NCBI GenBank assembly: GCA_041657385.1
Contig: JBBABZ010000004.1
Span: forward strand, 1,867-65,866
Length of the DNA stretch: 64,000 nucleotides
Reading direction: 5' to 3'
DNA from: Minisyncoccota bacterium
GTDB taxonomy: Bacteria; Patescibacteriota; Minisyncoccia; Minisyncoccales; JAQTVQ01
In this document: piece after piece, positions 3,551 to 61,607 of the stretch
How the letters are laid out: each line of letters starts with the position of its first letter
Numbering within the stretch: position 1 is the stretch's first letter
Program-made: the position numbers and the translations under genes
The notes under the pieces: generated by a model
What the model was told of the DNA's origin: nothing
The model's input: only the letters and a program-made list of their open reading frames with translations
Databases searched by the model: none

Positions 3551-4576
3551 TTATTTTTTTATTTTATTCTCCATCTCTTTTATTTTGTCTTTCAGCTCGG
3601 CCATCCTCACTTCCCTGCCGATGGTAAGTTTATACCATCTTTCCAGTTCGGCCGCTCTTTCCTCGGCTGTTTTTTTGCTCTGTTCAAGTTCTTTAGTGCG
3701 GTCTTGGACCAGTCCTTCCAGAAGATTTTTTGCATTTATTTCTTTATATGTATATTTTATCAATAAATAACCGATGACGAGGAACAACAGGAAAAATCCG
3801 AAAGCCAGTGCAGCTAAAGTGTCTGTCGGCATAAGAAAAGGAAAAATAAAGAGGGCTGTTCCCATAACAGCGACCAGCATTTCGCTGATGATGACTTTGA
3901 TATTAAGAAATCCGTATTTTAATATCGCGAAAGCGAAGATGGATATGAATATTACAGTATAGAATGGGGCGAAGTTGGTCAGCGAAAAGTTTTTGAAGAA
4001 GATCGGAAGCAATAAGTTGGTTATGATGCTCAATATTAAAAAGGCGGCCATCCCCGAGATCAGCAGCCGGAGGGTTTTTTTGATCTCCTGCTCCGCAGTT
4101 TTTGAATATTTATATATCATATTCGTTATGGCCGTTATCAAACAGCCGGCTAAAAAAGCAACGTAAAAATATTTTCCCTGGCCGAAGGTTATCTCGGAAA
4201 AATTTTCTTTCAATGTAATTTTTTCTATTAAGAACGGGGTTAGGGAGATAACGGCTGCTGCGCCGAATAAAAGAAAAGATATTGAGAAATATTTTTTTCC
4301 CGGGATGCTATTTTCCGGAAAAACTTTTGAGAATATTAAAAATGACCATGTTGCAATGGCGCATCCGATAAAAATCAGCTTATTCCATAAAATGGCGGAT
4401 CGGTAATCTTGCACGGAGTTGGAAAGATAATTGGAAACTATCCAAATGGTGATCCCTAAAGACATTAAAACGAAATATTTACTGGAGCGGCGTTTAAAAC
4501 CGTGGATCAAAACTATCCCTACGAGTTCCAAATTAAGCAGTGCGGCAGTTAGAACTATTAAAAATTGAAGATCCAT
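3551..4576 (-). CDS. 7TM+2TM sensor-like membrane protein with conserved C-terminal helix (paralog 2)
   Basis: It contains FAILKYGFLNIKVIISE and the PFLMPTD loop. It ends AELERWYKLTIGREVRMAELKDKIKEMENKIKK-stop. Confidence 0.8.
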   Translation of the reverse strand: MDLQFLIVLTAALLNLELVGIVLIHGFKRRSSKYFVLMSLGITIWIVSNYLSNSVQDYRSAILWNKLIFIGCAIATWSFLIFSKVFPENSIPGKKYFSISFLLFGAAAVISLTPFLIEKITLKENFSEITFGQGKYFYVAFLAGCLITAITNMIYKYSKTAEQEIKKTLRLLISGMAAFLILSIITNLLLPIFFKNFSLTNFAPFYTVIFISIFAFAILKYGFLNIKVIISEMLVAVMGTALFIFPFLMPTDTLAALAFGFFLLFLVIGYLLIKYTYKEINAKNLLEGLVQDRTKELEQSKKTAEERAAELERWYKLTIGREVRMAELKDKIKEMENKIKK

Positions 4577-4594
4577 TTTTTTGTTTATTGCTTG

Positions 4595-4640
4595 TTATTT
4601 TCCATCTTTTTTATTTTTTAACTTCGTCATCTTCGCTTCC
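4595..4640 (-). pseudogene. Decayed 3'-end fragment of a sensor-family paralog
   Basis: The minus strand reads GAAGCGAAGATGACGAAGTTAAAAAATAAAAAAGATGGAAAATAA (EAKMTKLKNKKDGK-stop). It aligns by eye at about 80% nucleotide identity to the EVRMAELKDKIKEMENK-stop ends of the intact paralogs. It starts 8 nt after the lysK stop. Confidence 0.45.
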
Positions 4641-4647
4641 TTATAGA

Positions 4648-6279
4648 TTAAATATCCAGAAGTTTTAATACCTTTTTTCTGTCTGCCGCCCAAAGGAATG
4701 TTGATAAGCGGGGTCCCTGGTCTTTGCCGATCAAAAGGTTATAAACATCTTTAAAGAAAGATTTTTGCAAGGGCATATTGGCTTTGATATCAAGATCAGG
4801 ATTTTTAGGGATGCCGTAGACTATTTCTTCCAATTTTTCAATAGAAGAAGCATCTTGTTCAAGGTGTTTTTTTAATGCCTTGATATGTTCAACAGCTTCC
4901 GGCGCCATTTTTTCTAAATATTCCTTGTTGGCTTCTTCTCTTAAACTGATCATCTGGTCTAGATTGTATATTTCCAGCCAGTTGCGGGCTTTAACCAGCC
5001 TTGATTTTATTGAAAGCGGATCGTAATCGGTTTTTAGCTCGTTAAACAGGCTCGCTAATTTTTCCAGATCCCATTGTATTATTTGTCCTAAAGCAACCGC
5101 TTGCCGGAATGGTATTGGATTAATATATATATCGTTGTTTTCGTTTAGCGTCAGGTCAAGCGTTTGCTTGCGAACAGCATCAAGTTCTCCTTTTTTGTAA
5201 CTTTCGAATTCAGCGTCCAGCTCGCTGTATTGGCGATAGATCTCGCTGTCAAAAGCCAAATTGAAAACGCTGCCAGGGCTCTTGCTCAAATAAAGCCATT
5301 TCAACAATGACGGTTCGTAAATTTCCAAAAGCTGGCCGGGAGTTACCGCGTTGCCTTTTGAGCCGGACATTTTGCCATCCAGCCCCCTTAAGCCGACGAA
5401 TTGATAACCGGCAAAGACCGGCGGTTCGATATTGAATATTTTTTTGGCAATAACGCTTGAAACATCGTAGCTTCCGCCCGGCGAAGCGTGGTCAGCCCCG
5501 CCCGGCTCGAAAACAACGCTCTCTTCTCCCCAGCGCATCGGCCAATCGGTTTTCCAAGCCAGCTTGACGATATGGTCTTTGGTTATGTCTATTTCTTCGG
5601 TTTTTCCGCTTTCCAAACATTGGTAAGTTATTTTATTCTCTCCATCGTAATTTAATATTTTCACGCTGTCTTTTCCCGTCCAGCGCGAATATAAAGATAT
5701 CGGATAATATTCGTTTCTGAACTTTTCCTCATTTATCCCCTTTTCTTCTTTGGCTTTTCCGGACATAAATGACAGTAAGATTTCCGCAATTTCTTTGCGT
5801 TTTTGGAGGGCATGGATGATCAATTTATCGTAACGGCCGGATTTGTATTCATCGGTTTGATAGCGGTATTCCAGTTCGATACCAAGATCTTTCATGGACT
5901 GCTCGAACTTTTTTTGGAAGTATTCGGCGTATGACCCGCCCTTCCCTTCCGGTTCAGGCACCGCGGTCAGCGGCAAGCCTATATATTTAGAAAAAGAAGC
6001 ATTGATATCCAGCGGAACCTTTCTGAACCGGTCAAAATTATCCCAGGAAAAAATCAGCCGGACTTTTTTGCCCGCGGCCTGTAATTGCTTGGCAACGGCA
6101 AGAGATGTCATTACATCGCGGAAGTTGCCGAAATGGACAATGCCCGACGGGCTGATACCCGCGGCGCAGGTGTAAATTTTCTTATCGGGGAAAGCTTTTA
6201 ATACTTTATCGGCAAGGACTTGGCTCCAATGCTGGTTGGTTGATTCGTTTTGCATAGATTTTTTTACCATTAAAATCAT
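4648..6279 (-). CDS. lysK: Lysyl-tRNA synthetase, class I (archaeal type)
   Basis: It has the PSGIVHFGNFRD (HIGH-like) and KMSGSKGN (KMSKS) motifs, a length of 543 aa, and an ATGA start/stop overlap with the upstream gene at 6276-6279. Confidence 0.9.
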   Translation of the reverse strand: MILMVKKSMQNESTNQHWSQVLADKVLKAFPDKKIYTCAAGISPSGIVHFGNFRDVMTSLAVAKQLQAAGKKVRLIFSWDNFDRFRKVPLDINASFSKYIGLPLTAVPEPEGKGGSYAEYFQKKFEQSMKDLGIELEYRYQTDEYKSGRYDKLIIHALQKRKEIAEILLSFMSGKAKEEKGINEEKFRNEYYPISLYSRWTGKDSVKILNYDGENKITYQCLESGKTEEIDITKDHIVKLAWKTDWPMRWGEESVVFEPGGADHASPGGSYDVSSVIAKKIFNIEPPVFAGYQFVGLRGLDGKMSGSKGNAVTPGQLLEIYEPSLLKWLYLSKSPGSVFNLAFDSEIYRQYSELDAEFESYKKGELDAVRKQTLDLTLNENNDIYINPIPFRQAVALGQIIQWDLEKLASLFNELKTDYDPLSIKSRLVKARNWLEIYNLDQMISLREEANKEYLEKMAPEAVEHIKALKKHLEQDASSIEKLEEIVYGIPKNPDLDIKANMPLQKSFFKDVYNLLIGKDQGPRLSTFLWAADRKKVLKLLDI

Positions 6280-7322
6280 TTATTCTCTAACTCTTTTATT
6301 TTATCTTTGAGCTCGGCCATCCTCACTTCCCGGCCAATGGTCAGCTTATACCATCTTTCCAGCTCGGCGGCTCTTTCTTCGGCAACCTTTTTCGCTTCTT
6401 CAGCCACTTTTTCAGATTTTTCAAGCTCTCCGGTCCTTTCTTTGACCTTCTGCTCCAATGTTTCGCTGTTTTTTATTTCTTTCAAGCTAGCTTTTATTAA
6501 CAAATAACCGATCAAACAAAAGACTATAAAAACAGTGATTGCCAATATGCGGAGAATATTTGTCGACATCAAAAACGGAAGAAACAACAGCACGAAACCC
6601 ATGGCGCCTACCAATATTTCGGTCATGATTATTTTAATATCGAAAAGGCGGTAGCGGAGTATGGCGACGGCGGAAAAAACAATGAAAAAGCTGAAACAGA
6701 GCGGTCCATATTGAGGCACTTCGTAAGATCCCAGCTTGAACATAGGGTACATCAAATTGGTAAATACGGTTAAGATAAAAGACAAAAATATCCCGACCAA
6801 GAAGTAGGAAGCTTGCCGTTTTTTTATCGTTTCTTTTAACTCTTTGTATTTTAAAACGGAAAAGGTAATGGATGTGAGCAGGCCGAACAAAAGAACAATA
6901 GCAAAAACCGGGTACAAAGGACCATATGTTTTATTTATCATTACTCCGTTAGAATAGGAGACTTTATCTGCTACTAAATCTGTCAATACAGACATCAGCC
7001 CTATTATAACCATTGAGCTGATGAAAAAGATATTTATCCATTTGGGGAGGTATTTTTCTTCAGGGAATATCTGGACGAAATACATAAAATCAGCGGCCAA
7101 AAAACAAATCCCGAAAAATGACAATCCGAAGCCAAGGTTCCCTATATATGTGGAGATAGGTCTTGCGGTCATTAATACCCCCGTCATCCAAATAGCCGCA
7201 AACAAGCAGAAGAACAAGAAAGTCAAAGAAGTCCTGCTTTTTTTATTGCTAAAGTAAACAAAAATCCCTATAAACAAAGTGAGAACAATAAATACTAAAA
7301 TGAGAGGCGTTAGAATATCCAT
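6276..7322 (-). CDS. 7TM+2TM sensor-like membrane protein with conserved C-terminal helix (paralog 3, longest linker)
   Basis: It contains VAILRYRLFDIKIIMTE and the PFLMSTN loop. It ends AELERWYKLTIGREVRMAELKDKIKELENK-stop. Confidence 0.8.
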   Translation of the reverse strand: MDILTPLILVFIVLTLFIGIFVYFSNKKSRTSLTFLFFCLFAAIWMTGVLMTARPISTYIGNLGFGLSFFGICFLAADFMYFVQIFPEEKYLPKWINIFFISSMVIIGLMSVLTDLVADKVSYSNGVMINKTYGPLYPVFAIVLLFGLLTSITFSVLKYKELKETIKKRQASYFLVGIFLSFILTVFTNLMYPMFKLGSYEVPQYGPLCFSFFIVFSAVAILRYRLFDIKIIMTEILVGAMGFVLLFLPFLMSTNILRILAITVFIVFCLIGYLLIKASLKEIKNSETLEQKVKERTGELEKSEKVAEEAKKVAEERAAELERWYKLTIGREVRMAELKDKIKELENK

Positions 7323-7332
7323 AGTTATTTTA

Positions 7333-8901
7333 TTAGCCGTTACTTAATTTTGTTTTATTTTCCATTTCTTTTATCTTTTCTTTTAACTCGGCCATTCGCA
7401 CTTCCCTGCCAATGGTCAGCTTATACCATTTTTCCAGCTCTTCTTTTCCTTTTTGAATTTCTTGGTAGGAAAGAGCGTTGCTGAAAGCGACGGCTAGCTG
7501 TGTTGTCAGGGAAGACAGCAAGTTTATTTCCTGCGACGTATACGGTTCATCTGTCAGTTTGTCGCCCAAGGCAATGATCCCGATCAATTCTTTTTTAATA
7601 AAGAAAGGCAGAAACATTGATATTTTTGCATTATCCATATCGGATTTCAGATTAGACAGCTCGCTGATTTTTTCAGATTTTTTCTCTGCGATAATATAAG
7701 GAATTTCTTCGCTGATCAGGAGTTTTTTGGTTGATTGGAGATAATCAGCAAGGAAGTTGTTTTGCTTTCCGATCAATAAAACCAAATTTTCTTTATCGAA
7801 TCCTTCGGACGTTTCTATTTTGAAAAGATCAGAATAAGCATCGACAGCTCTTTGCTTTAAGATAACAGCAGACTTGTCCAGCTGAAGAGAATCTACAAGA
7901 GATTTGTTCACAAAATCAGCCAATTGGTTTAACTCGATTATGTGCGGCAGTTCTTTGATCAAATTCGAAAGGGATTTTTGAAGCGAATAAAAAGTATAGT
8001 AGAAATATCGGCCGGCCATTTTTTCATAAAATCGGAAAGCCGGGAGAAAAATAAATACGGTTGCCAGCGAGTTTACGATCGTTAAAAAAATTGCGGGAAG
8101 TTTAAAGAAAGCGTTATTCAAAAATTCAAGCGTTAAAACCAGGACGATCAAAGTAAGGCTGGTCAAGGTGTATATACCGATCCGCCCCAGAATTATTCTG
8201 GTATCCATGATCTTATATCTCAAAATGGCGTAAGCCGTCAGCCCTACCCAGACAAAAGAAAAAAGAGAGCTGATTTCTATGCCGAAATCAGTATTGATCC
8301 CATAATTTTCAAAATATTTCGACATTAAAGGCATGATCCCTCCGGCAATGAGCGAGGCGGTTGAATATATGCCCACGCCCAAGATAAAATATCTGGATTG
8401 AATTTTTTTCAAGCCGCTGCTTTTAAAATAATACCTTATAAGATTTATCAGCCCTATTGCCGCGCCGAAAATAACATATAATCTTCCTAGCGGTTCAAGA
8501 GGGCCATAGTCTCCCATGCCCACAGTGTTTTTTATATAAGCCGTACAGACAAATAAGGATGTTGTCAGCGCTAAGGCTACAAGCACAATACCGCTCGAGA
8601 TCAGAAGGAAAGATTTTATTTTTATATGTTCCAGCTGTTCCGTGAAGTGGTAAGTAAAGACAACAAAAAAAGGCAAGATAAGCAAGGATGTCCAAGTCAT
8701 TCTCATTAGAAACAAACTGGGATAGTTTGCAAAAATATACCAAAGACCGAAACTACCGGCATACAAGCATGAAATCAAGGCAATCCAGCCGCAATAGAAA
8801 GTAGCTGCTGTTTTCCCTCTAAACCATAGCAGAAAAGCCAACAAAAAATTGAGAAAAGCAGCCAAGAGAAATATGGATGATTTGACCAGGTAAATATCCA
8901 T
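7333..8901 (-). CDS. Sensor-family membrane protein with inserted GAF-like domain and the conserved C-terminal helix (paralog 4)
   Basis: The polytopic N-terminus contains AILRYKIMD. A roughly 190-aa cytoplasmic segment ends in the GAF-like signature FLPFFIKKELIGIIALGDK..TSQEINLLSSLTTQLAVAFSNALSYQE. The protein then ends EELEKWYKLTIGREVRMAELKEKIKEMENK. Confidence 0.75.
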   Translation of the reverse strand: MDIYLVKSSIFLLAAFLNFLLAFLLWFRGKTAATFYCGWIALISCLYAGSFGLWYIFANYPSLFLMRMTWTSLLILPFFVVFTYHFTEQLEHIKIKSFLLISSGIVLVALALTTSLFVCTAYIKNTVGMGDYGPLEPLGRLYVIFGAAIGLINLIRYYFKSSGLKKIQSRYFILGVGIYSTASLIAGGIMPLMSKYFENYGINTDFGIEISSLFSFVWVGLTAYAILRYKIMDTRIILGRIGIYTLTSLTLIVLVLTLEFLNNAFFKLPAIFLTIVNSLATVFIFLPAFRFYEKMAGRYFYYTFYSLQKSLSNLIKELPHIIELNQLADFVNKSLVDSLQLDKSAVILKQRAVDAYSDLFKIETSEGFDKENLVLLIGKQNNFLADYLQSTKKLLISEEIPYIIAEKKSEKISELSNLKSDMDNAKISMFLPFFIKKELIGIIALGDKLTDEPYTSQEINLLSSLTTQLAVAFSNALSYQEIQKGKEELEKWYKLTIGREVRMAELKEKIKEMENKTKLSNG

Positions 8902-38013: not shown

Positions 38014-38066
38014 CCCTGTGGATAACTCACGAAAAACTGGTCGAGGCCGGGCCTCGACCAGTTTTT
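38014..38066 (+). repeat. Terminator-linked repeat element: CCCTGTGGATAACTCAC + A5 + perfect 11-bp GC-rich hairpin + T5
   Basis: TGTGGATAA is at 38017-38025 and the hairpin CTGGTCGAGGC-CGG-GCCTCGACCAG at 38037-38061. It sits between two convergent genes. Confidence 0.75.
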
Positions 38067-47915: not shown

Positions 47916-47969
47916 AAAAAACTGGTCGAAGCCCGGCTTCCGCAAGTTTTTAGTGAGTTATCCACAGGG
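47916..47969 (-). repeat. Terminator-linked repeat element with DnaA-box 9-mer, abutting the cysK stop
   Basis: The + strand reads AAAAACTGGTCGAAGCCCGGCTTCCGCAAGTTTTTAGTGAGTTATCCACAGGG, with TTATCCACA at 47958-47966. Confidence 0.75.
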
Positions 47970-48881: not shown

Positions 48882-48916
48882 AAAAATGTAATTAATTTAC
48901 GGACAGTTATTCTTGA

Positions 48917-49020
48917 TAAAATTGTCGAGGCCCGCTTCGCCCCTGCCTACCGGCAGGCAGGCGCCGTAGCTTTAGCGAAGGCGGGGCTTCTGCCAGTTTT
49001 TAGCGAGTTATCCACAGGGA
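48917..49020 (-). repeat. Terminator-linked repeat element with a nested GC-rich palindrome and DnaA-box 9-mer
   Basis: TTATCCACA is at 49008-49016. CCTGCCTACCGGCAGGCAGG at 48942-48961 is nested inside the outer hairpin arms (GTCGAGGCCCGCTTCGCC / GGCGGGGCTTCTGCCAG). Confidence 0.7.
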
Positions 49021-49044
49021 ATTTATTAATAATTATTCTCTTTA

Positions 49045-49080
49045 AATAAAAAACCTCTTTCGGTTTAGGGAAGAGGTTCT
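49045..49080 (-). terminator. Intrinsic terminator after the Cys-rich mini-ORF (candidate attenuator)
   Basis: The minus strand reads AACCTCTT-CCCTAAACCGA-AAGAGGTT followed by TTTTTTATTT. Confidence 0.65.
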
Positions 49081-49104
49081 TTTGTTGGAATTTATTTTAG
49101 GCCT

Positions 49105-49218
49105 TTATCTCGTTGTTTCGAGTCTACAACATACCGGTCCAAACAAATTAACCTCTTTCTTACAAGAAGAAGAACAACAAACGCAACAAGAAGAAATTTG
49201 GTTAATTTGTTTATTCAT
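49105..49218 (-). CDS. Untracked 37-aa Cys-rich ORF, candidate cysK leader peptide: MNKQINQISSCCVCCSSSCKKEVNLFGPVCCRLETTR
   Basis: Translated by hand: ATG at 49218-49216 and TAA at 49107-49105. It has 7 Cys and 5 Ser codons. On the minus strand a TTGACG-17-TATTTT promoter lies at 49254-49226, directly upstream. A terminator lies 25 nt downstream, and cysK follows on the same strand. Confidence 0.55.
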   Translation of the reverse strand: MNKQINQISSCCVCCSSSCKKEVNLFGPVCCRLETTR

Positions 49219-49300
49219 TAATATAAAAATACCAAACCCTAACCCCGCCGTCAAGTTAAAATTTACAAGAAAAATAAAGAACCCCCCTATTTTATTAGTA

Positions 49301-49352
49301 AAAAACTAGCCGAAGCCCGGCTTCCGCAAGTTTTTAATGATTTATCCACAGT
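49301..49352 (-). repeat. Terminator-linked repeat element with DnaA-box 9-mer
   Basis: The + strand reads AAAAACTAGCCGAAGCCCGGCTTCCGCAAGTTTTTAATGATTTATCCACAG, with TTATCCACA at 49342-49350. Confidence 0.7.
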
Positions 49353-49451
49353 TCATAGATAATAAATATGCACAGGTGACACCTGTGCATCTCTAGCTCT
49401 GGTATTCTCCAGAAAGGGTTAGACCCTTTCTGGAGAATCATCTGCCAAGGG

Positions 49452-58792: not shown

Positions 58793-59416
58793 TTAAATTT
58801 TTTGATCAAGACCAAAAATAGTATTGATTGTTACGCTGTCATTCATGATAACATTTCCAACGCTAGCAGGAATTGAATATTGAATCTTAACGCTGGCAGT
58901 TTTGTCTGTGCCTAATATGTCACCAAGCACTAGCTGGTTTGGATTAGCATTAAATTCAGCGAGAGTGTAGTCGTATAAAACAGACCCGAAGACACCATTG
59001 TTTTCTGGGCTATACGAAATTTTTATTCTAATGTTTTGAGGAAGCTCACCAGTCGTATCGCTGGCACTGTCTCCGGCAGCCACTTCGGGAGCGAGAGCTG
59101 TATTCTCTGCGTTAGAAGTTACCACCAATCTGATGGAAGCTACACCGTTAACACTACCCTGTTTTTGGATATCGACGATTTGTTCGTCTGTAAATCCTGG
59201 TGCTAAATTGGTTAATTGGACTGGAGAAACAAAACCATCAGACCATACTTGTGCGCCGCCAGAAGGATTACTATCCACTTTAAGATCTAATGTTCCAGCT
59301 GTAATAGTGCTACCTGATGCAACTGTTGTGTCGGTAAAATAAGCGACTGTTCCCGCGGTGGCAACTGCGCCAACCACGAGCATTGTGGCTAAACTAACTA
59401 AAATTTTTGCATTCAT
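58793..59416 (-). CDS. TasA/camelysin-like SipW-dependent secreted protein
   Basis: It contains the signal sequence VGAVATAGTVAYFTDTTVASGSTITAGTLDL, typical of the family. Confidence 0.75.
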   Translation of the reverse strand: MNAKILVSLATMLVVGAVATAGTVAYFTDTTVASGSTITAGTLDLKVDSNPSGGAQVWSDGFVSPVQLTNLAPGFTDEQIVDIQKQGSVNGVASIRLVVTSNAENTALAPEVAAGDSASDTTGELPQNIRIKISYSPENNGVFGSVLYDYTLAEFNANPNQLVLGDILGTDKTASVKIQYSIPASVGNVIMNDSVTINTIFGLDQKI

Positions 59417-59567
59417 AAGTGTTTTTAAAAATTAAAATTGTACTGATTATTTTTCTCTGCGTTTTTAATTGCCCCTGCAGGGATCAGGCAAGCCGACCAG
59501 TGGCGTTAATTTTTATAAGTCCACGCTTCGCTTTTTTATCAAAAAATTTTCAATAAAAAAGCGAAGC

Positions 59568-59666
59568 CTAAGCTCCGCGTCCAAAATTTAAAATTGTCTT
59601 ATGTAAAATCCAAGCCGCTGTGCAGTTCCAATATCCAATTATCTGATGGTGATTGCATCCAAACAT
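59568..59666 (-). CDS. Untracked 32-aa ORF: MFGCNHHQIIGYWNCTAAWILHKTILNFGRGA
   Basis: Translated by hand. On the minus strand a TTGACA-16-TAAAAT promoter lies at 59756-59729. A 14-bp-stem hairpin (GCTTCGCTTTTTTA / TAAAAAAGCGAAGC) at about 59525-59567 follows the stop. Confidence 0.4.
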   Translation of the reverse strand: MFGCNHHQIIGYWNCTAAWILHKTILNFGRGA

Positions 59667-59847
59667 AGTGCGTTTTCCTACTTACAATAATCCTTATCTT
59701 GATAATCCTGCCCTTCTTGGTACTTTTGATTTTACCCTGCCGCAAACCCCTGTCAAGTTTTTCCTTTACCAGAAACCAATCCCCAAACTCGTCAAACTTC
59801 CTTCAAAAACCATACCTATCCGAAAGGTATAGTTTCCCAAATCAAGA

Positions 59848-59894
59848 ATGGTCAAGGCCCGGCCTTGACCATCTTTTGGTGAGTTATCCACAGC
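59848..59894 (-). repeat. Terminator-linked repeat element with DnaA-box 9-mer
   Basis: The + strand reads ATGGTCAAGGCCCGGCCTTGACCATCTTTTGGTGAGTTATCCACAGCC, with TTATCCACA at 59884-59892. Confidence 0.75.
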
Positions 59895-59937
59895 CTAAAA
59901 GAAAAAACTTCCGGGATTCCGGAAGTTTTTTGATGCT

Positions 59938-60042
59938 TTATTGCGATCTGGGCACCGCTGTCAGTGCCGGTATTATCAAAAAAAAGATAATATTTTCCAA
60001 AACAAAAAGGAAAATCAACGCTATTAGTAAGCCCTTGCTCAT
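59938..60042 (-). CDS. Untracked 34-aa hydrophobic ORF: MSKGLLIALIFLFVLENIIFFLIIPALTAVPRSQ
   Basis: Translated by hand. On the minus strand a TTGACA-17-TATTAT promoter lies at 60179-60151, followed by a ~100-nt structured leader. The terminator CTTCCGG-N4-CCGGAAG+T6 lies at 59902-59931. Confidence 0.5.
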   Translation of the reverse strand: MSKGLLIALIFLFVLENIIFFLIIPALTAVPRSQ

Positions 60043-60226
60043 TTATTTTATTTTTAAGGTGCGAATTGCTGGTCTGCCAATCTGCCGACCAGCAAGAACC
60101 GCTCCTTAAAGGTTAAGATTCTTGCCAGTTGACGCTGGCGATACCTAAAGATAATAGTAATTTTTGCCGAATTTGTCAAAATTTAGTGAAAAACTACACC
60201 TGTTCGACAGGTGTATTAAAAATTTA

Positions 60227-60270
60227 CCAGAAGCCCGGCTTCTGCCAGTTTTTTGTGAGCTATCCACAAC
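60227..60270 (-). repeat. Terminator-linked repeat element with near-consensus DnaA-box 9-mer
   Basis: The + strand reads CCAGAAGCCCGGCTTCTGCCAGTTTTTTGTGAGCTATCCACAAC, with CTATCCACA at 60260-60268. Confidence 0.7.
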
Positions 60271-60327
60271 TCAAAGCATATTTTCACAAACAAAAACTTC
60301 CGGGTTTCGGAAGTTTTTTGATGTTTT

Positions 60328-60468
60328 TCATTCGCTATTTTGAATTTGCGGGAGCTGGGTGCTTCCAGCTTCTCGATGTTTTTCCCTTGTAATGCCGAAT
60401 ATGGTAAAAACAACGGCAAAGATCAGCATTGCCGATACAAAGACAAAGAAAATTGAAACAGCTTTCAT
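60328..60468 (-). CDS. Untracked 46-aa single-TM ORF: MKAVSIFFVFVSAMLIFAVVFTIFGITREKHREAGSTQLPQIQNSE
   Basis: Translated by hand. On the minus strand a TTGACA-17-TAATAT promoter lies at 60605-60577. Its leader is homologous to that of 59938-60042. The terminator CTTCCG-N5-CGGAAG+T6 lies at 60292-60319. Confidence 0.5.
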   Translation of the reverse strand: MKAVSIFFVFVSAMLIFAVVFTIFGITREKHREAGSTQLPQIQNSE

Positions 60469-60677
60469 ATTTAATTTTTTAAAGGTGCCTTGCCTGCTTA
60501 GCATCAGCTTTGCAGGACAGTGGTTCCCTAAAAAAGGTTACATATCCTGCCCAGCCGATGCTGGCGATGTCTAAAAATATTAATGATTTTTACAAAGCCT
60601 GTCAACTAAAAAAACTACACCTTTCGGATAGGTATAGTTCAAAGCGTAATCCTTAAAGGATCATCCGAAAATATGCA

Positions 60678-61607
60678 TCATTTTATCGCCTTCATCAGCG
60701 GAGGCAAAATATCTTTTTTGCGCGACATTGCTTTTTCGAGATAAACGGAACCGCCAACAACTTTTTTGCCAAACGCTTTTTCCATAGACTCAATATCTCC
60801 GGCAATCAAAACTTCCGAACCTTCATTTATAATATCCGTAATCATTAAAGCCATAAAAGAAAAACTTTCTTTTTGCGCAATTTCAGCCATTTTTTCCAAA
60901 AGCTCGGCTTTCTTCTCTTTGGCCTCCCCTAATTCCACTACTTCTATTTGTCCAATCCCGAATTTTTTTCCGCTGGCCTCAAAAGCCTTGAAATCGGAAT
61001 AAATTATTTTTTCAGCGGTTAGTCCTTTCAGGCTCGCCTTTTGTTTCTTTATTTCTATGCCGAATTTTTTCAAATTTTTGATCTTGGCTTTTGGGCCAAG
61101 CTTTTTGGCAATTTCAATATCTGTTTTGGTGGTGGTGGCTGATTTAAAAACCACGGTGTCCGACAAAATGGCTGAAACCAAAAGACCGGCCAATTGAGGA
61201 GTGATCTTAAATTTCTTATCAGCCAGCATTTTTTTGGCAACCAAGGTCGCGGTTGAACCAACCGGCTCGGCATGGACAATAATAGGCTCGGAGCAGATAA
61301 ACCCTATTTTATGGTGGTCTAAAATTTCAATAATTTTAGCTTCTTCAATACCATCAGGACTTTGGCTTTTTTCGTTGTGGTCAACTAAGACCAGCTTCTG
61401 GCCGGCAACCGACTCCAGTTTAGCCGGAGATTTTATTTTGAAATAGTCCAGCACAAACTGGGTTTCCGGGTTGATCTCGCCGAAAACAGCCGGAACAGCA
61501 TTAATCCTGCACGTTTTTTTCAAATAAGCGGAGTAAGCAATTGCCGAACAAACCGTATCGGTATCGGGCGACTTATGGCCAATGACATAAACTGTTTCTT
61601 TTTCCAT
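60678..61607 (-). CDS. ppaC: Manganese-dependent inorganic pyrophosphatase (family II, DHH)
   Basis: It contains VIGHKSPDTDTVCSAIAYS and ILDHHKIG in 309 aa. Confidence 0.88.
   Translation of the reverse strand: MEKETVYVIGHKSPDTDTVCSAIAYSAYLKKTCRINAVPAVFGEINPETQFVLDYFKIKSPAKLESVAGQKLVLVDHNEKSQSPDGIEEAKIIEILDHHKIGFICSEPIIVHAEPVGSTATLVAKKMLADKKFKITPQLAGLLVSAILSDTVVFKSATTTKTDIEIAKKLGPKAKIKNLKKFGIEIKKQKASLKGLTAEKIIYSDFKAFEASGKKFGIGQIEVVELGEAKEKKAELLEKMAEIAQKESFSFMALMITDIINEGSEVLIAGDIESMEKAFGKKVVGGSVYLEKAMSRKKDILPPLMKAIK

Follow-up and report, generated by a model that had tools for sequence, protein, structure and literature searches.

The 1.26-kb gap between ppaC and the TasA-like gene (positions 59417-60677 of the window, that is, of the whole 64,000-nt stretch of DNA that was analysed) probably contains two decayed gene cassettes for small membrane-anchored proteins, together with a leader ORF and terminator that serve the TasA-like gene, in the genome of an uncultured member of Paceibacterota. 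The gap is thus composed of two unrelated kinds of unit rather than four equal modules, with modules a and b at 60645-59836 and modules c and d at 59756-59417. The parts of both kinds of unit are on the minus strand, except for two bidirectional terminators. The regulatory anatomy found here belongs to known kinds. For comparison, we used two related Paceibacterota genomes, L059 (ppaC 91% identical) and L063 (ppaC 77-80% identical), so that the analysis covers three genomes in all.

The initial annotation had described the gap as four tandem modules, each with promoter, leader, mini-ORF and terminator. The individual features are indeed where they had been placed, and the homology of a and b is confirmed by nhmmer, but module c has only the upstream hairpin in common with them, and the promoter scan gives module d no promoter of its own. 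The same scan recovers promoters a, b and c with matches of 10/12, 11/12 and 11/12, and the mini-ORFs of 46, 34 and 32 aa as well as the terminators at 60319-60292 and 59931-59902 are present as claimed. Overall, the gap has 11 promoter-like sites versus 5.2 +/- 2.5 in shuffled sequences, and 11 terminator-like sites versus 2.4 +/- 1.3. The separator hairpins reported earlier also form a family, hairpin T, with three copies (60640-60612, 60215-60195 and 59835-59810) against a chance expectation of 0. The four ORFs called on the opposite strand in the public record L001 cross promoters and terminators and are spurious, as had been suggested for the ORF track. When these four ORFs and the three peptides were concatenated for a protein search, no match was returned, with self-matches missing too, so this search carries little weight. 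Three contigs with an identical ppaC are also identical over the whole gap; since they show no variation, they are uninformative on selection.

Module c was presented initially as one of the four tandem modules, and our comparison makes it not a further copy of the a/b type but a separate conserved leader ORF and terminator preceding the TasA-like gene. Promoter c (59729-59756; TTGACA-16-TAAAAT, 11/12) is followed by the 32-codon ORF c (59568-59666; MFGCNHHQIIGYWNCTAAWILHKTILNFGRGA), whose UAG stop codon (59570-59568) is located inside the loop of terminator T1 (59552-59578; GCGGAGC-UUAG-GCUUCGC and then U6). T1 has a 7-bp stem and folds alone with -12 kcal/mol. It is overlapped by a long hairpin of about 21 bp (59525-59567), the 5' arm of which consists of the 3' arm of T1 and its U-run, and therefore the two structures are mutually exclusive. 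A 14-bp stem had been proposed for this hairpin behind ORF c; its arms measure 21 nt (59567-59525). The 3' part of the c/d leader (59450-59524) is conserved, with small hairpins GUGG..CCAC and UUGCC..GGCAA, and leads to the TasA / Peptidase_M73-like gene (58793-59416), the first gene of the fibre operon.

Module c is conserved in L063 upstream of its Peptidase_M73 gene. The promoter hexamers are identical at the homologous place (8099-8126), and the counterpart of ORF c (MFGCNHYQTTQSWNVVAAGNWRETILNFLSRA) has equal length, frame, start and stop, with conserved N- and C-terminal blocks. In L063, T1 reads GCAGAGC/GCUUUGC, which amounts to one compensatory change from G-C to A-U, and in the long hairpin, which is also kept, the altered position of the T1 arm forms a G.U pair. 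The 150-nt block at 59600-59450 is 82% identical between the two genomes, compared with an identity of 77% between the ppaC genes and 55% between the TasA-like ones. Codon differences in ORF c are distributed as 9/10/10 over the three positions, with 5 synonymous and 15 non-synonymous codons; because there is no codon-position bias, translation of ORF c is only weakly indicated. A sigma-70 consensus scan of the minus strand from promoter c to the start of the TasA-like gene detected no further promoter-like site in either the window or L063, so c and d probably form a single attenuator-controlled transcription unit, in which the predicted route of transcription into the TasA-like gene is from promoter c through T1.

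It is unlikely, in our assessment, that module c is instead an independent gene for a small Cys/His/Trp protein of 32 aa terminated by T1, with the TasA-like gene served by an unrecognised promoter further downstream. Such a gene would account for the complete set of promoter, ORF and terminator, for the conserved peptide blocks at both ends, and for the approximately 260 nt of unrelated sequence that separate the element from the gene in L063, and the promoter scan was limited to sigma-70-type sites. However, neither genome has a promoter-like site between T1 and the gene, the codon-position bias of a coding sequence is absent, and the greatest conservation is found in the RNA downstream of the ORF, not in the ORF. 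For the attenuator reading, a ribosome that tracks RNA polymerase closely to the end of ORF c would block T1, and transcription would continue into the TasA-like gene; if the ribosome lagged or stalled, T1 would form and terminate. After read-through, the 21-bp hairpin would take the place of T1. Because it lies downstream of T1, this hairpin cannot serve as a classical anti-terminator before the termination decision.

Modules a and b have a different ancestry. An nhmmer profile built from both matched L059 at four promoter-leader sites and three terminator/box sites, and L063 at three leader sites. Every match is located before or behind a called gene of 143-198 aa. These genes are arranged as cassettes in tandem downstream of ppaC. 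Each cassette runs from a terminator hairpin and a sigma-70-type promoter through a structured 5' UTR (about 100 nt) and the ORF to an intrinsic terminator and a DnaA-box/terminator element. In the encoded proteins (143-198 aa), a low-complexity linker joins an N-terminal membrane anchor to a C-terminal domain of about 85 aa. Across the tandem paralogues of the window, L059 and L063, the 5' region is conserved and the mature part is divergent. On this comparative evidence, cassettes a and b belong to a family of self-contained gene cassettes that is specific to the lineage. Searches of the cassette proteins against Pfam, NCBIfam and PDB sequences gave no match above threshold; the best one was the NlpE N-terminal domain, for a single member, with 21.7 bits versus a cut-off of 22.

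Cassette a opens with the first copy of hairpin T (60612-60640; GAACTATACCTATCCGAAAGGTGTAGTTT and then a T-run), which is likely the terminator of the ppaC-like gene and marks the beginning of the array; hairpins of the same type flank the L059 array at 4998-5026 and 8370-8398. Promoter a (60577-60605; TTGACA-17-TAATAT, 10/12) aligns with the cassette promoters of L059 and L063. It is followed by leader a (60469-60570), a divergent type-1 5' UTR with GCACCUUUAAAAAAUUAAAU at its end before the AUG, and by ORF a (60328-60468; 46 aa, MKAVSIFFVFVSAMLIFAVVFTIFGITREKHREAGSTQLPQIQNSE), an N-terminal membrane-anchor stub of a cassette protein. The bidirectional hairpin of terminator a (60292-60319; AAAAAACTTCCG...CGGAAGTTTTT) is homologous to the terminators behind L059 c5 and L063 c2/c3. 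The cassette ends in a DnaA-box/terminator element (60228-60268; TGTGGATAGCTCAC and then hairpin CAGAAGCCGGGCTTCTG), one of six copies in the window.

Cassette b repeats this plan with the second copy of hairpin T (60195-60215; TACACCTGTCGAACAGGTGTA and then a T-run), promoter b (60151-60179; TTGACA-17-TATTAT, 11/12) and leader b (60043-60144), a type-1 5' UTR supported by its fold z-score and a covariance model. ORF b (59938-60042; 34 aa, MSKGLLIALIFLFVLENIIFFLIIPALTAVPRSQ) is what remains, after decay, of a counterpart to the 154-aa gene L059 c5. It is followed by terminator b (59902-59931), a perfect 13-bp bidirectional hairpin, by a second DnaA-box/terminator element (59847-59892; TGTGGATAACTCAC and then a 12-bp hairpin), and by the third copy of hairpin T (59810-59835) from the hairpin-family search.

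The two short peptides align only to the N-terminal anchors of the 143-198-aa proteins. In ORF a, the residues ITREK are in frame with ITPEK of L059 c5, and about 330 nt are missing before the terminator. In the DNA alignment with L059 c5, the flanks are conserved, and ORF b has lost 31 nt at one place and about 330 nt at another and shifts frame after LIIPA. These alignments show that both ORFs have lost the linker and the domain by internal deletion, and that their promoters, leaders and terminators are intact. Between cassette b and L059 c5, identity is 77.5% for promoter plus leader, 81% for terminator plus box and 55% for the first 25 codons, with the third codon positions of ppaC (66.5% identical) as a reference for these figures. 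The first 25 codons of the stubs are 51-55% identical, which is under the third-position identity of ppaC, and the peptide sequence is the least conserved portion of the cassette unit. A further stub of 58 aa is found in L059 (c2).

The initial annotation offered two readings of the modules. The first, toxin-like peptides or accessory peptides of the fibre locus, is not sustained, as the homologues are proteins of 143-198 aa of which the peptides match only the anchors, and b is frameshifted. The modules do not accompany other TasA/SipW loci either: the TasA-homologue loci L015-L021 carry none of them, and a conserved tie between the modules and the fibre locus was rejected on this ground.

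Selection could nevertheless have kept the short forms as functional small membrane proteins, or because their transcripts act as decoys and titrate a leader-binding factor. The promoters match at 10-11/12 positions, the leaders, start regions and terminators are intact, both frames are open up to the terminator, L059 has its own 58-aa stub, and leader b is conserved above neutral sites. We consider this quite improbable, however, in view of the frameshift and several deletions in copy b relative to its counterpart and of the low identity of the first 25 codons (51-55%, lower than ppaC third positions); the near-identical strains offer no variation for testing selection. The reading of both frames as gene remnants is the one that we carry into the annotation, where the two real mini-ORFs are neither toxin nor accessory-subunit genes.

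The second reading, a family of structured cis-regulatory RNAs, has gained support from the leaders. We found nine leader copies in the three genomes, each directly upstream of a cassette start codon. Both leaders of the window begin with ATCGCCAGC (2 matches versus 0.02 expected). The reported second helix was verified base by base in leader a (GGCAGGA/UCCUGC, 60551-45/60517-12) and in leader b (GCAAGAA/UUCUUGC, 60125-19/60098-92). The complete set of helices in leader a includes P1 (CCAGC/GCUGG), P2 (60550-60543/60519-60512) and P3 (60516-60512/60497-60493), and that in leader b includes P1 (GCCAG/CUGGC), P2 (60125-60118/60099-60092) and P3 (60095-60087/60074-60066). Fold z-scores of the nine leaders range from -3.0 to -5.3, with -3.9 for leader a and -4.5 for leader b.

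A covariance model was constructed from four leaders. Leader a was left out of this model, R1, as MAFFT had misplaced its P2 and P3, and was regained by the search. R1 recovered all nine leaders in the three genomes and no other site in the window, with 26.3 bits (E = 0.0019) for leader a and 96.4 bits for leader b. In the alignment used for pair counts, which is fitted to the model and contains one probable noise row (L016, E = 0.53), 8 of the 11 P2 pairs have changes on both sides and pairing is kept in 96% of P2 cells. Over the whole structure this figure is 93%, and it falls to 30-56% when partner columns are slid; none of 500 shuffles equalled the observed covariation score. RNAalifold predicted P2 for type-1 and type-2 leaders alike and P3 for the latter, and each of the five type-1 leaders has a P3 stem of different sequence. 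From the aligned base changes, P2 and P3 are seen to be maintained by compensatory changes, and the conserved RNA structure of the leader is real.

Within a genome, the 5' regions have been homogenised in part (in L059, c2 matches c5 exactly through P2, and c1 nearly matches c4), and thus the nine leaders are not nine independent observations. It could be argued from this that the similarity reflects only recent duplication or gene conversion of cassette 5' ends, with an RNA structure devoid of function; the identity of L059 c2 and c5 begins at the upstream hairpin and runs through P2, that of c1 and c4 is nearly complete, and only three genomes were available. We regard this as very unlikely, since P2 and P3 vary in sequence between genomes and subtypes with their pairing retained, each of the five type-1 leaders has its own P3 stem sequence, and all nine leaders fold much better than their shuffles.

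The leader similarity was also followed beyond the three genomes. Rfam 15 gave 0 matches over the whole window at gathering thresholds, and none that was meaningful over the gap at permissive E-values; the best sub-threshold matches, located in modules a and b, were to the Phe leader and the His leader (25-26 bits versus cut-offs of 49-55), and these were driven by the terminators. Matches to the leader pattern ATCGCCAG-N-CTGG-N-TAACCTTT (11 in genome contigs, 17 in metagenome contigs and, for a shorter pattern, 20 in viral contigs) were rejected as chance, as they came from unrelated taxa and none was backed by the nhmmer profile.

After P1-P3, the leaders continue into an A/U-rich translation-initiation region, GCACCUU(U)AAAAA-N-AUG. 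The host genome does not use Shine-Dalgarno sites, and for this reason the A/U-rich start regions of a and b resemble those of real genes. In leader b, the P2-loop sequence UUUAAGG is able to pair alternatively with CCUUAAA immediately 5' of the AUG. An alternative pairing of this kind, which covers the start, is the minimum free energy fold of leader b, L059 c5, L063 c3 and L063 c1, and also of L059 c2 in a shorter construct; it is not the best fold for leader a and three type-2 leaders. The pairing involves invariant A/U-rich sequence and shows no covariation. In a mechanism of this type, P2 would compete with the pairing of its loop (UUUAAGGA.CGG) with the stretch immediately before the start codon (CCG.ACCUUAAA), and the leader would set translation of the cassette gene and/or the stability of its mRNA.

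The remaining explanation, that modules a and b are loci of the type I toxin-antitoxin kind, with a hydrophobic toxic peptide, an inhibitory 5' UTR and control by an antisense or small RNA, draws on the single-helix hydrophobic peptides of 34 and 46 aa, the structured leaders of about 100 nt with an alternative fold that hides the start region, the tandem copies with bidirectional terminators and a SocA/Panacea toxin-antitoxin module in the same variable region of L059, but is extremely improbable given that the homologues are 143-198-aa proteins with an extracytoplasmic domain and the peptides are their truncated anchors, that the plus strand has only two promoter-like sites, both weak (9/12) and differently placed in a and b, and that the peptide is the least conserved part of the unit.

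Two other origins for the gap were discarded. A replication origin was rejected on the grounds that GC skew has no sign change, the flanking genes are co-oriented and the perfect DnaA boxes are all in dispersed 3'-end elements. A phage or plasmid origin was dismissed after blastn gave no match.

To our knowledge, hardly anything is known about regulation in uncultured Patescibacteria. The gap provides two regulatory candidates. The first is a leader motif (about 95 nt) whose helices covary and which precedes the genes of a variable membrane-anchored protein family; the second is a leader ORF with terminator upstream of the TasA/SipW fibre operon. We would attach a low probability to the far-reaching proposal that the leader is a previously undescribed bistable RNA (responsive to a ligand, a protein or temperature) that controls diversifying Paceibacterota-specific surface proteins, with truncated cassettes retained in the circuit and the TasA operon under a new translation-coupled attenuator. 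The site downstream of ppaC differs among all relatives examined, and it is useful for studying gain and loss of surface-protein genes in episymbiont-like bacteria.

Several known systems resemble parts of this region. The 5' stem-loops of ompA and aprE and the RNA thermometers are structured 5' UTRs that determine how stable an mRNA is or how well it is translated. Like these, the cassette leader has P1 within a few bases of the predicted RNA start and an A/U-rich pairing that can cover the initiation region; unlike them, it matches no Rfam family and occurs in an organism without Shine-Dalgarno sites to sequester. Modules a and b share with type I toxin mRNAs (hok, tisB, ldr, zorO, fst) short hydrophobic peptides, structured 5' UTRs that can hide the start, and tandem repeats, but differ in that the peptides are truncated anchors and that no conserved antisense promoter was found.

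The leader ORF of the E. coli pyrBI attenuator reaches into the terminator, whose hairpin cannot form while a ribosome is closely coupled. Module c has a comparable short ORF before an operon, with its end overlapping an intrinsic terminator (the stop codon being in the T1 loop), and, as for leader-peptide attenuators, the scan gives the downstream gene no second promoter. In contrast to leader-peptide attenuators, module c has neither an upstream anti-terminator helix nor a run of regulatory codons, and its competing 21-bp hairpin is downstream of T1.

The vlp, vsp and vsa systems of Mycoplasma are tandem genes for variable surface (lipo)proteins with conserved 5' regions. The cassettes are similar to them in being side-by-side paralogues in a small-genome bacterium, each with its own promoter and conserved 5' non-coding region, in combining an N-terminal membrane-targeting segment with a highly divergent mature part, and in forming an array that varies among close relatives. 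They differ in that, on reading the sequence, no homopolymer tract is seen in the promoter spacers, where no run exceeds A5, and no invertible segment is seen either. Moreover, the anchor sequence of the cassettes is not conserved, each cassette has its own terminators, and the conserved 5' UTR folds into an RNA structure whose helices covary.

The gap under study (59417-60677, read on the minus strand) belongs to a Candidatus Paceibacterota MAG. It is bordered by a ppaC-like gene for a DHH/DHHA2 manganese pyrophosphatase at 60678-61607 and by a TasA/Peptidase_M73-like gene at 58793-59416, both on the minus strand; after the latter come a gene for a SipW-like peptidase and a second TasA-like gene. 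A public gene call (L001) has four opposite-strand ORFs here, 54-87 aa long, which cross promoters and terminators, in agreement with the earlier suspicion that such ORFs are spurious. The elements listed in the initial annotation are all present where it placed them, including three promoter-like sites (modules a, b and c) matching 10-11 of 12 consensus positions, three ORFs, two bidirectional terminators (a and b), three copies of the hairpin ACACCT-N-AGGTGT with a T-run (none expected by chance), the common leader start ATCGCCAGC (two matches against 0.02 expected), and two leader helix sequences confirmed base by base against the DNA. Promoter-like sites in the gap are about twice, and terminator-like sites more than four times, as frequent as in shuffled sequence. 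Three near-identical contigs had no variation across the region. A phage or plasmid origin of the region found no support.

Modules a and b are a tandem duplication that has since diverged, repeating every ~426 nt. The proposal of four equal modules did not hold, as module c has only the upstream hairpin in common with a and b, and the promoter scan found none belonging to module d. The initial annotation had also raised, as a check, whether similar mini-ORFs accompany TasA/SipW loci elsewhere; since the examined loci of TasA homologues (37-63% identity) contain neither the modules nor a ppaC neighbour, the modules are not a conserved part of these loci. Full-text literature on TasA/SipW in the candidate phyla radiation yielded, among the matches listed, only work on Bacillus TasA.

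The counterparts of modules a and b were found by following ppaC, whose protein has a graded series of relatives. The gene content downstream of ppaC is different in every relative examined, and this site is a hot spot for gene turnover. In L059 and L063, two loci of related Paceibacterota with ppaC identities of 91% and 80%, the modA/modB profile detected four promoter-leader sites plus three terminator/DnaA-box sites, and three leader sites, respectively. Most leader sites have a called gene directly 3', encoding proteins of 198, 169 and 154 aa in L059 and 174, 156 and 143 aa in L063, while one more L059 leader precedes a 58-aa stub. The proteins of these cassettes share a hydrophobic N-terminal anchor, a low-complexity linker rich in Gln, Pro, Ser and Glu, and a C-terminal domain of ~85 aa with the pattern DG.Y...G.W...D..L...W; searches against Pfam, NCBIfam and PDB sequences gave nothing at threshold. 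L063 has the layout closest to the window (ppaC, three full cassettes, module c, TasA-like operon), and its third cassette occupies the position of module b. Ahead of its five cassettes, L059 carries an HTH/SocA_Panacea gene and a 111-aa partner (3875-4976) that look like a toxin-antitoxin pair; other relatives have a radical SAM gene, a large gene, or unrelated genes at the same site.

Peptides a and b align only to the N-terminal anchors of the cassette proteins. In DNA alignments, module b corresponds to L059 cassette 5 (c5), which carries the 154-aa gene. The promoter and leader of the two are 77.5% identical, and the terminator and DnaA-box element 81%, but the first 25 codons are just 55% identical, against 66.5% for third codon positions of ppaC in the same two genomes; therefore b is under constraint in its flanks but not in its ORF. 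Relative to c5, ORF b has a 31-nt deletion, a frame change after LIIPA, and a ~330-nt deletion that places a stop codon beside the terminator. In module a the ancestral reading frame is preserved as far as ITREK (ITPEK in L059 c5, FSPEK in L063 c3), after which ~330 nt are missing, the same stretch as in b. Judging from these alignments, mini-ORFs a and b are N-terminal stubs of decayed cassette genes, which argues against the earlier reading of small membrane peptides with a toxin-like or fibre-subunit role. Type I toxin-antitoxin loci, as a specific form of the toxin reading, fail because the homologues are not small peptides and a conserved antisense promoter was not found. Some residual function of the stubs is possible, given that their promoters, leaders, start regions and terminators are all intact and that a third stub is present in L059. 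The latter (5994-6170) is an anchor-only ORF of 58 aa (MEEKYIIGFLCLLCLAIILFWILYLYRLYSS...) in a truncated cassette, with a complete type-1 leader 5' and its own terminator 3'. An in-frame ATG 36 nt upstream of ORF a (60504-60469, minus strand) would give a 58-aa product; it lies within the leader between P2 and the 3' strand of P3, lacks a counterpart in the other leaders, and is probably not the start. Regions upstream of nearly all long ORFs in the window, ORFs a and b included, are A/U-rich, and a Shine-Dalgarno motif is absent upstream of nearly all long ORFs; this genome makes no use of Shine-Dalgarno sites.

The leaders of these cassettes form a structured RNA family, as the initial annotation had proposed as one of two readings, with compensatory changes in helices P2 and P3. 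We compared nine leaders from three genomes, with 5' ends homogenised within a genome (for example, L059 c2 and c5 are identical through P2), and distinguished type 1 (window a and b, L059 c2 and c5, L063 c3) and type 2 (L059 c1 and c4, L063 c1 and c2). Fold z-scores against shuffles ranged from -3.0 to -5.3. RNAalifold predicted the central helix P2 in both subtypes and the next hairpin, P3, in type 2, both with compensatory changes; P3 is also found in all five type-1 leaders, with a different stem each time (CCUGC/GCAGG, UUGCUGGUC/GACCAGCAA, UGCCGA/UCGGCA, UGCU/AGCA and UUGCCG/CGGCAA). A covariance model built from four type-1 leaders found the complete set of nine, and nothing else across the 64 kb of the window. 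In an alignment fitted to the model, which covers three genomes only and includes one probable noise row, 93% of cells pair (30-56% in slid controls) and both sides have changed in 8 of 11 P2 pairs. The observed covariation score was reached by none of 500 shuffles. These compensatory changes contradict gene conversion alone as the source of leader similarity. Within L059, cassette 5' regions (5844-5960 and 7575-7690; 5087-5238 and 6902-7054) are identical or nearly so from the upstream hairpin and promoter through P2, with ORFs unrelated in sequence, which points to gene conversion or to 5' ends duplicated recently. Every leader finishes in GCACCUU(U)AAAAA, a few bases 5' of the AUG, a motif that is not general among the window's genes. 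Rfam gave no family at threshold, tRNA included, in the whole 64 kb, and leader pattern scans of genome, metagenome and viral collections returned chance matches only.

Predicted folds suggest that the leader may be a two-state switch, in which the initiation region is exposed or hidden; candidate triggers would be a protein, a ligand, temperature or co-transcriptional kinetics. The type-1 helices share bases: 2-3 nt belong both to the 5' strand of P2 and to the 3' strand of P1, and 3-5 nt both to the 3' strand of P2 and to the 5' strand of P3. In the minimum-free-energy folds of window leader b, L059 c5, L063 c3 and L063 c1, the P2 loop (UUUAAGGA.CGG) pairs with CCG.ACCUUAAA just 5' of the start codon, displacing P2 and enclosing P3, and a shorter L059 c2 construct folds likewise. 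This pairing would hide the initiation region. Forcing P2 in these leaders costs 3-8 kcal/mol; in window leader a and three type-2 leaders, P2 is already the best fold. We can only infer the loop pairing, because the sequence involved is invariant and A/U-rich, with zero covariation.

The DnaA-box element that closes the cassettes is dispersed more widely. It consists of TGTGGATAACTCAC, with the perfect DnaA box TTATCCACA inside, followed by AAAAACTGG, a G+C-rich hairpin and a T-run, with an extra inserted hairpin in some copies. The window has six matches against 0.25 expected (38017-38030 on the plus strand; 47953-47966, 49003-49016, 49337-49350, 59879-59892 and 60255-60268 on the minus strand), and copies occur near 3670, 6800 and 8245 in L059 and near 7340 and 8040 in L063. 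Each of the window's five perfect DnaA boxes belongs to a copy of this element, and four of the six copies sit a few bases 3' of a gene in its orientation. The element may serve as a terminator that carries a protein-binding box, or it may titrate DnaA. A replication origin in the region was excluded. The copies at 49003 and 49337 fall within a second long intergenic gap (48882-49451), where they flank a small self-contained module (49045-49260, minus strand) with a promoter-like TTGACG, a Cys-rich ORF of 37 codons (ATG at 49218, stop at 49105, minus strand; 7 Cys, MNKQINQISSCCVCCSSSCKKEVNLFGPVCCRLETTR), and a terminator hairpin AACCTCTT..AAGAGGTT with T6.

Module c is conserved at the same place in L063, directly upstream of its Peptidase_M73 gene, with its promoter hexamers, start context, terminator, long hairpin and downstream small hairpins. 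ORF c has 32 codons in both genomes, in the same frame, and the 150-nt block from its end onward is 82% identical, compared with 77% for ppaC and 55% for the TasA-like genes. The terminator T1 (GCGGAGC-UUAG-GCUUCGC plus U6, -12 kcal/mol folded alone) holds the UAG stop of ORF c in its loop. Its L063 stem, GCAGAGC/GCUUUGC, has a compensatory G-C to A-U change, and the base change results in a G.U pair in the long hairpin, a pattern that fits RNA, and not a DNA palindrome, as the target of selection. The 3' arm and U-run of T1 are also the 5' arm of a 21-bp hairpin, so the two are mutually exclusive. In both genomes, scanning from promoter c to the start codon of the TasA-like gene gave no further promoter-like site on the minus strand. 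We read modules c and d as a putative pyrBI-type, translation-coupled attenuator: a ribosome near the end of ORF c, close behind the polymerase, would block T1 from forming, and transcription would end at T1 where no ribosome is closely coupled. Three features weaken the attenuator reading, namely that codon differences in ORF c between the two genomes (9/10/10 by position; 5 synonymous and 15 non-synonymous codons) lack a third-position bias, that the competing 21-bp hairpin lies downstream of T1, and that 260 nt of unrelated sequence precede the gene in L063. Module c may instead be an independent small gene.

Overall, the initial annotation observed the region accurately and erred in its four-module framing and its peptide interpretation. 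The regulatory and evolutionary anatomy is of familiar kinds: paralogous cassettes in decay, a 5' UTR whose structure is conserved, and a leader ORF with a terminator. The lineage has been little studied, and two of the RNA elements are absent from Rfam.
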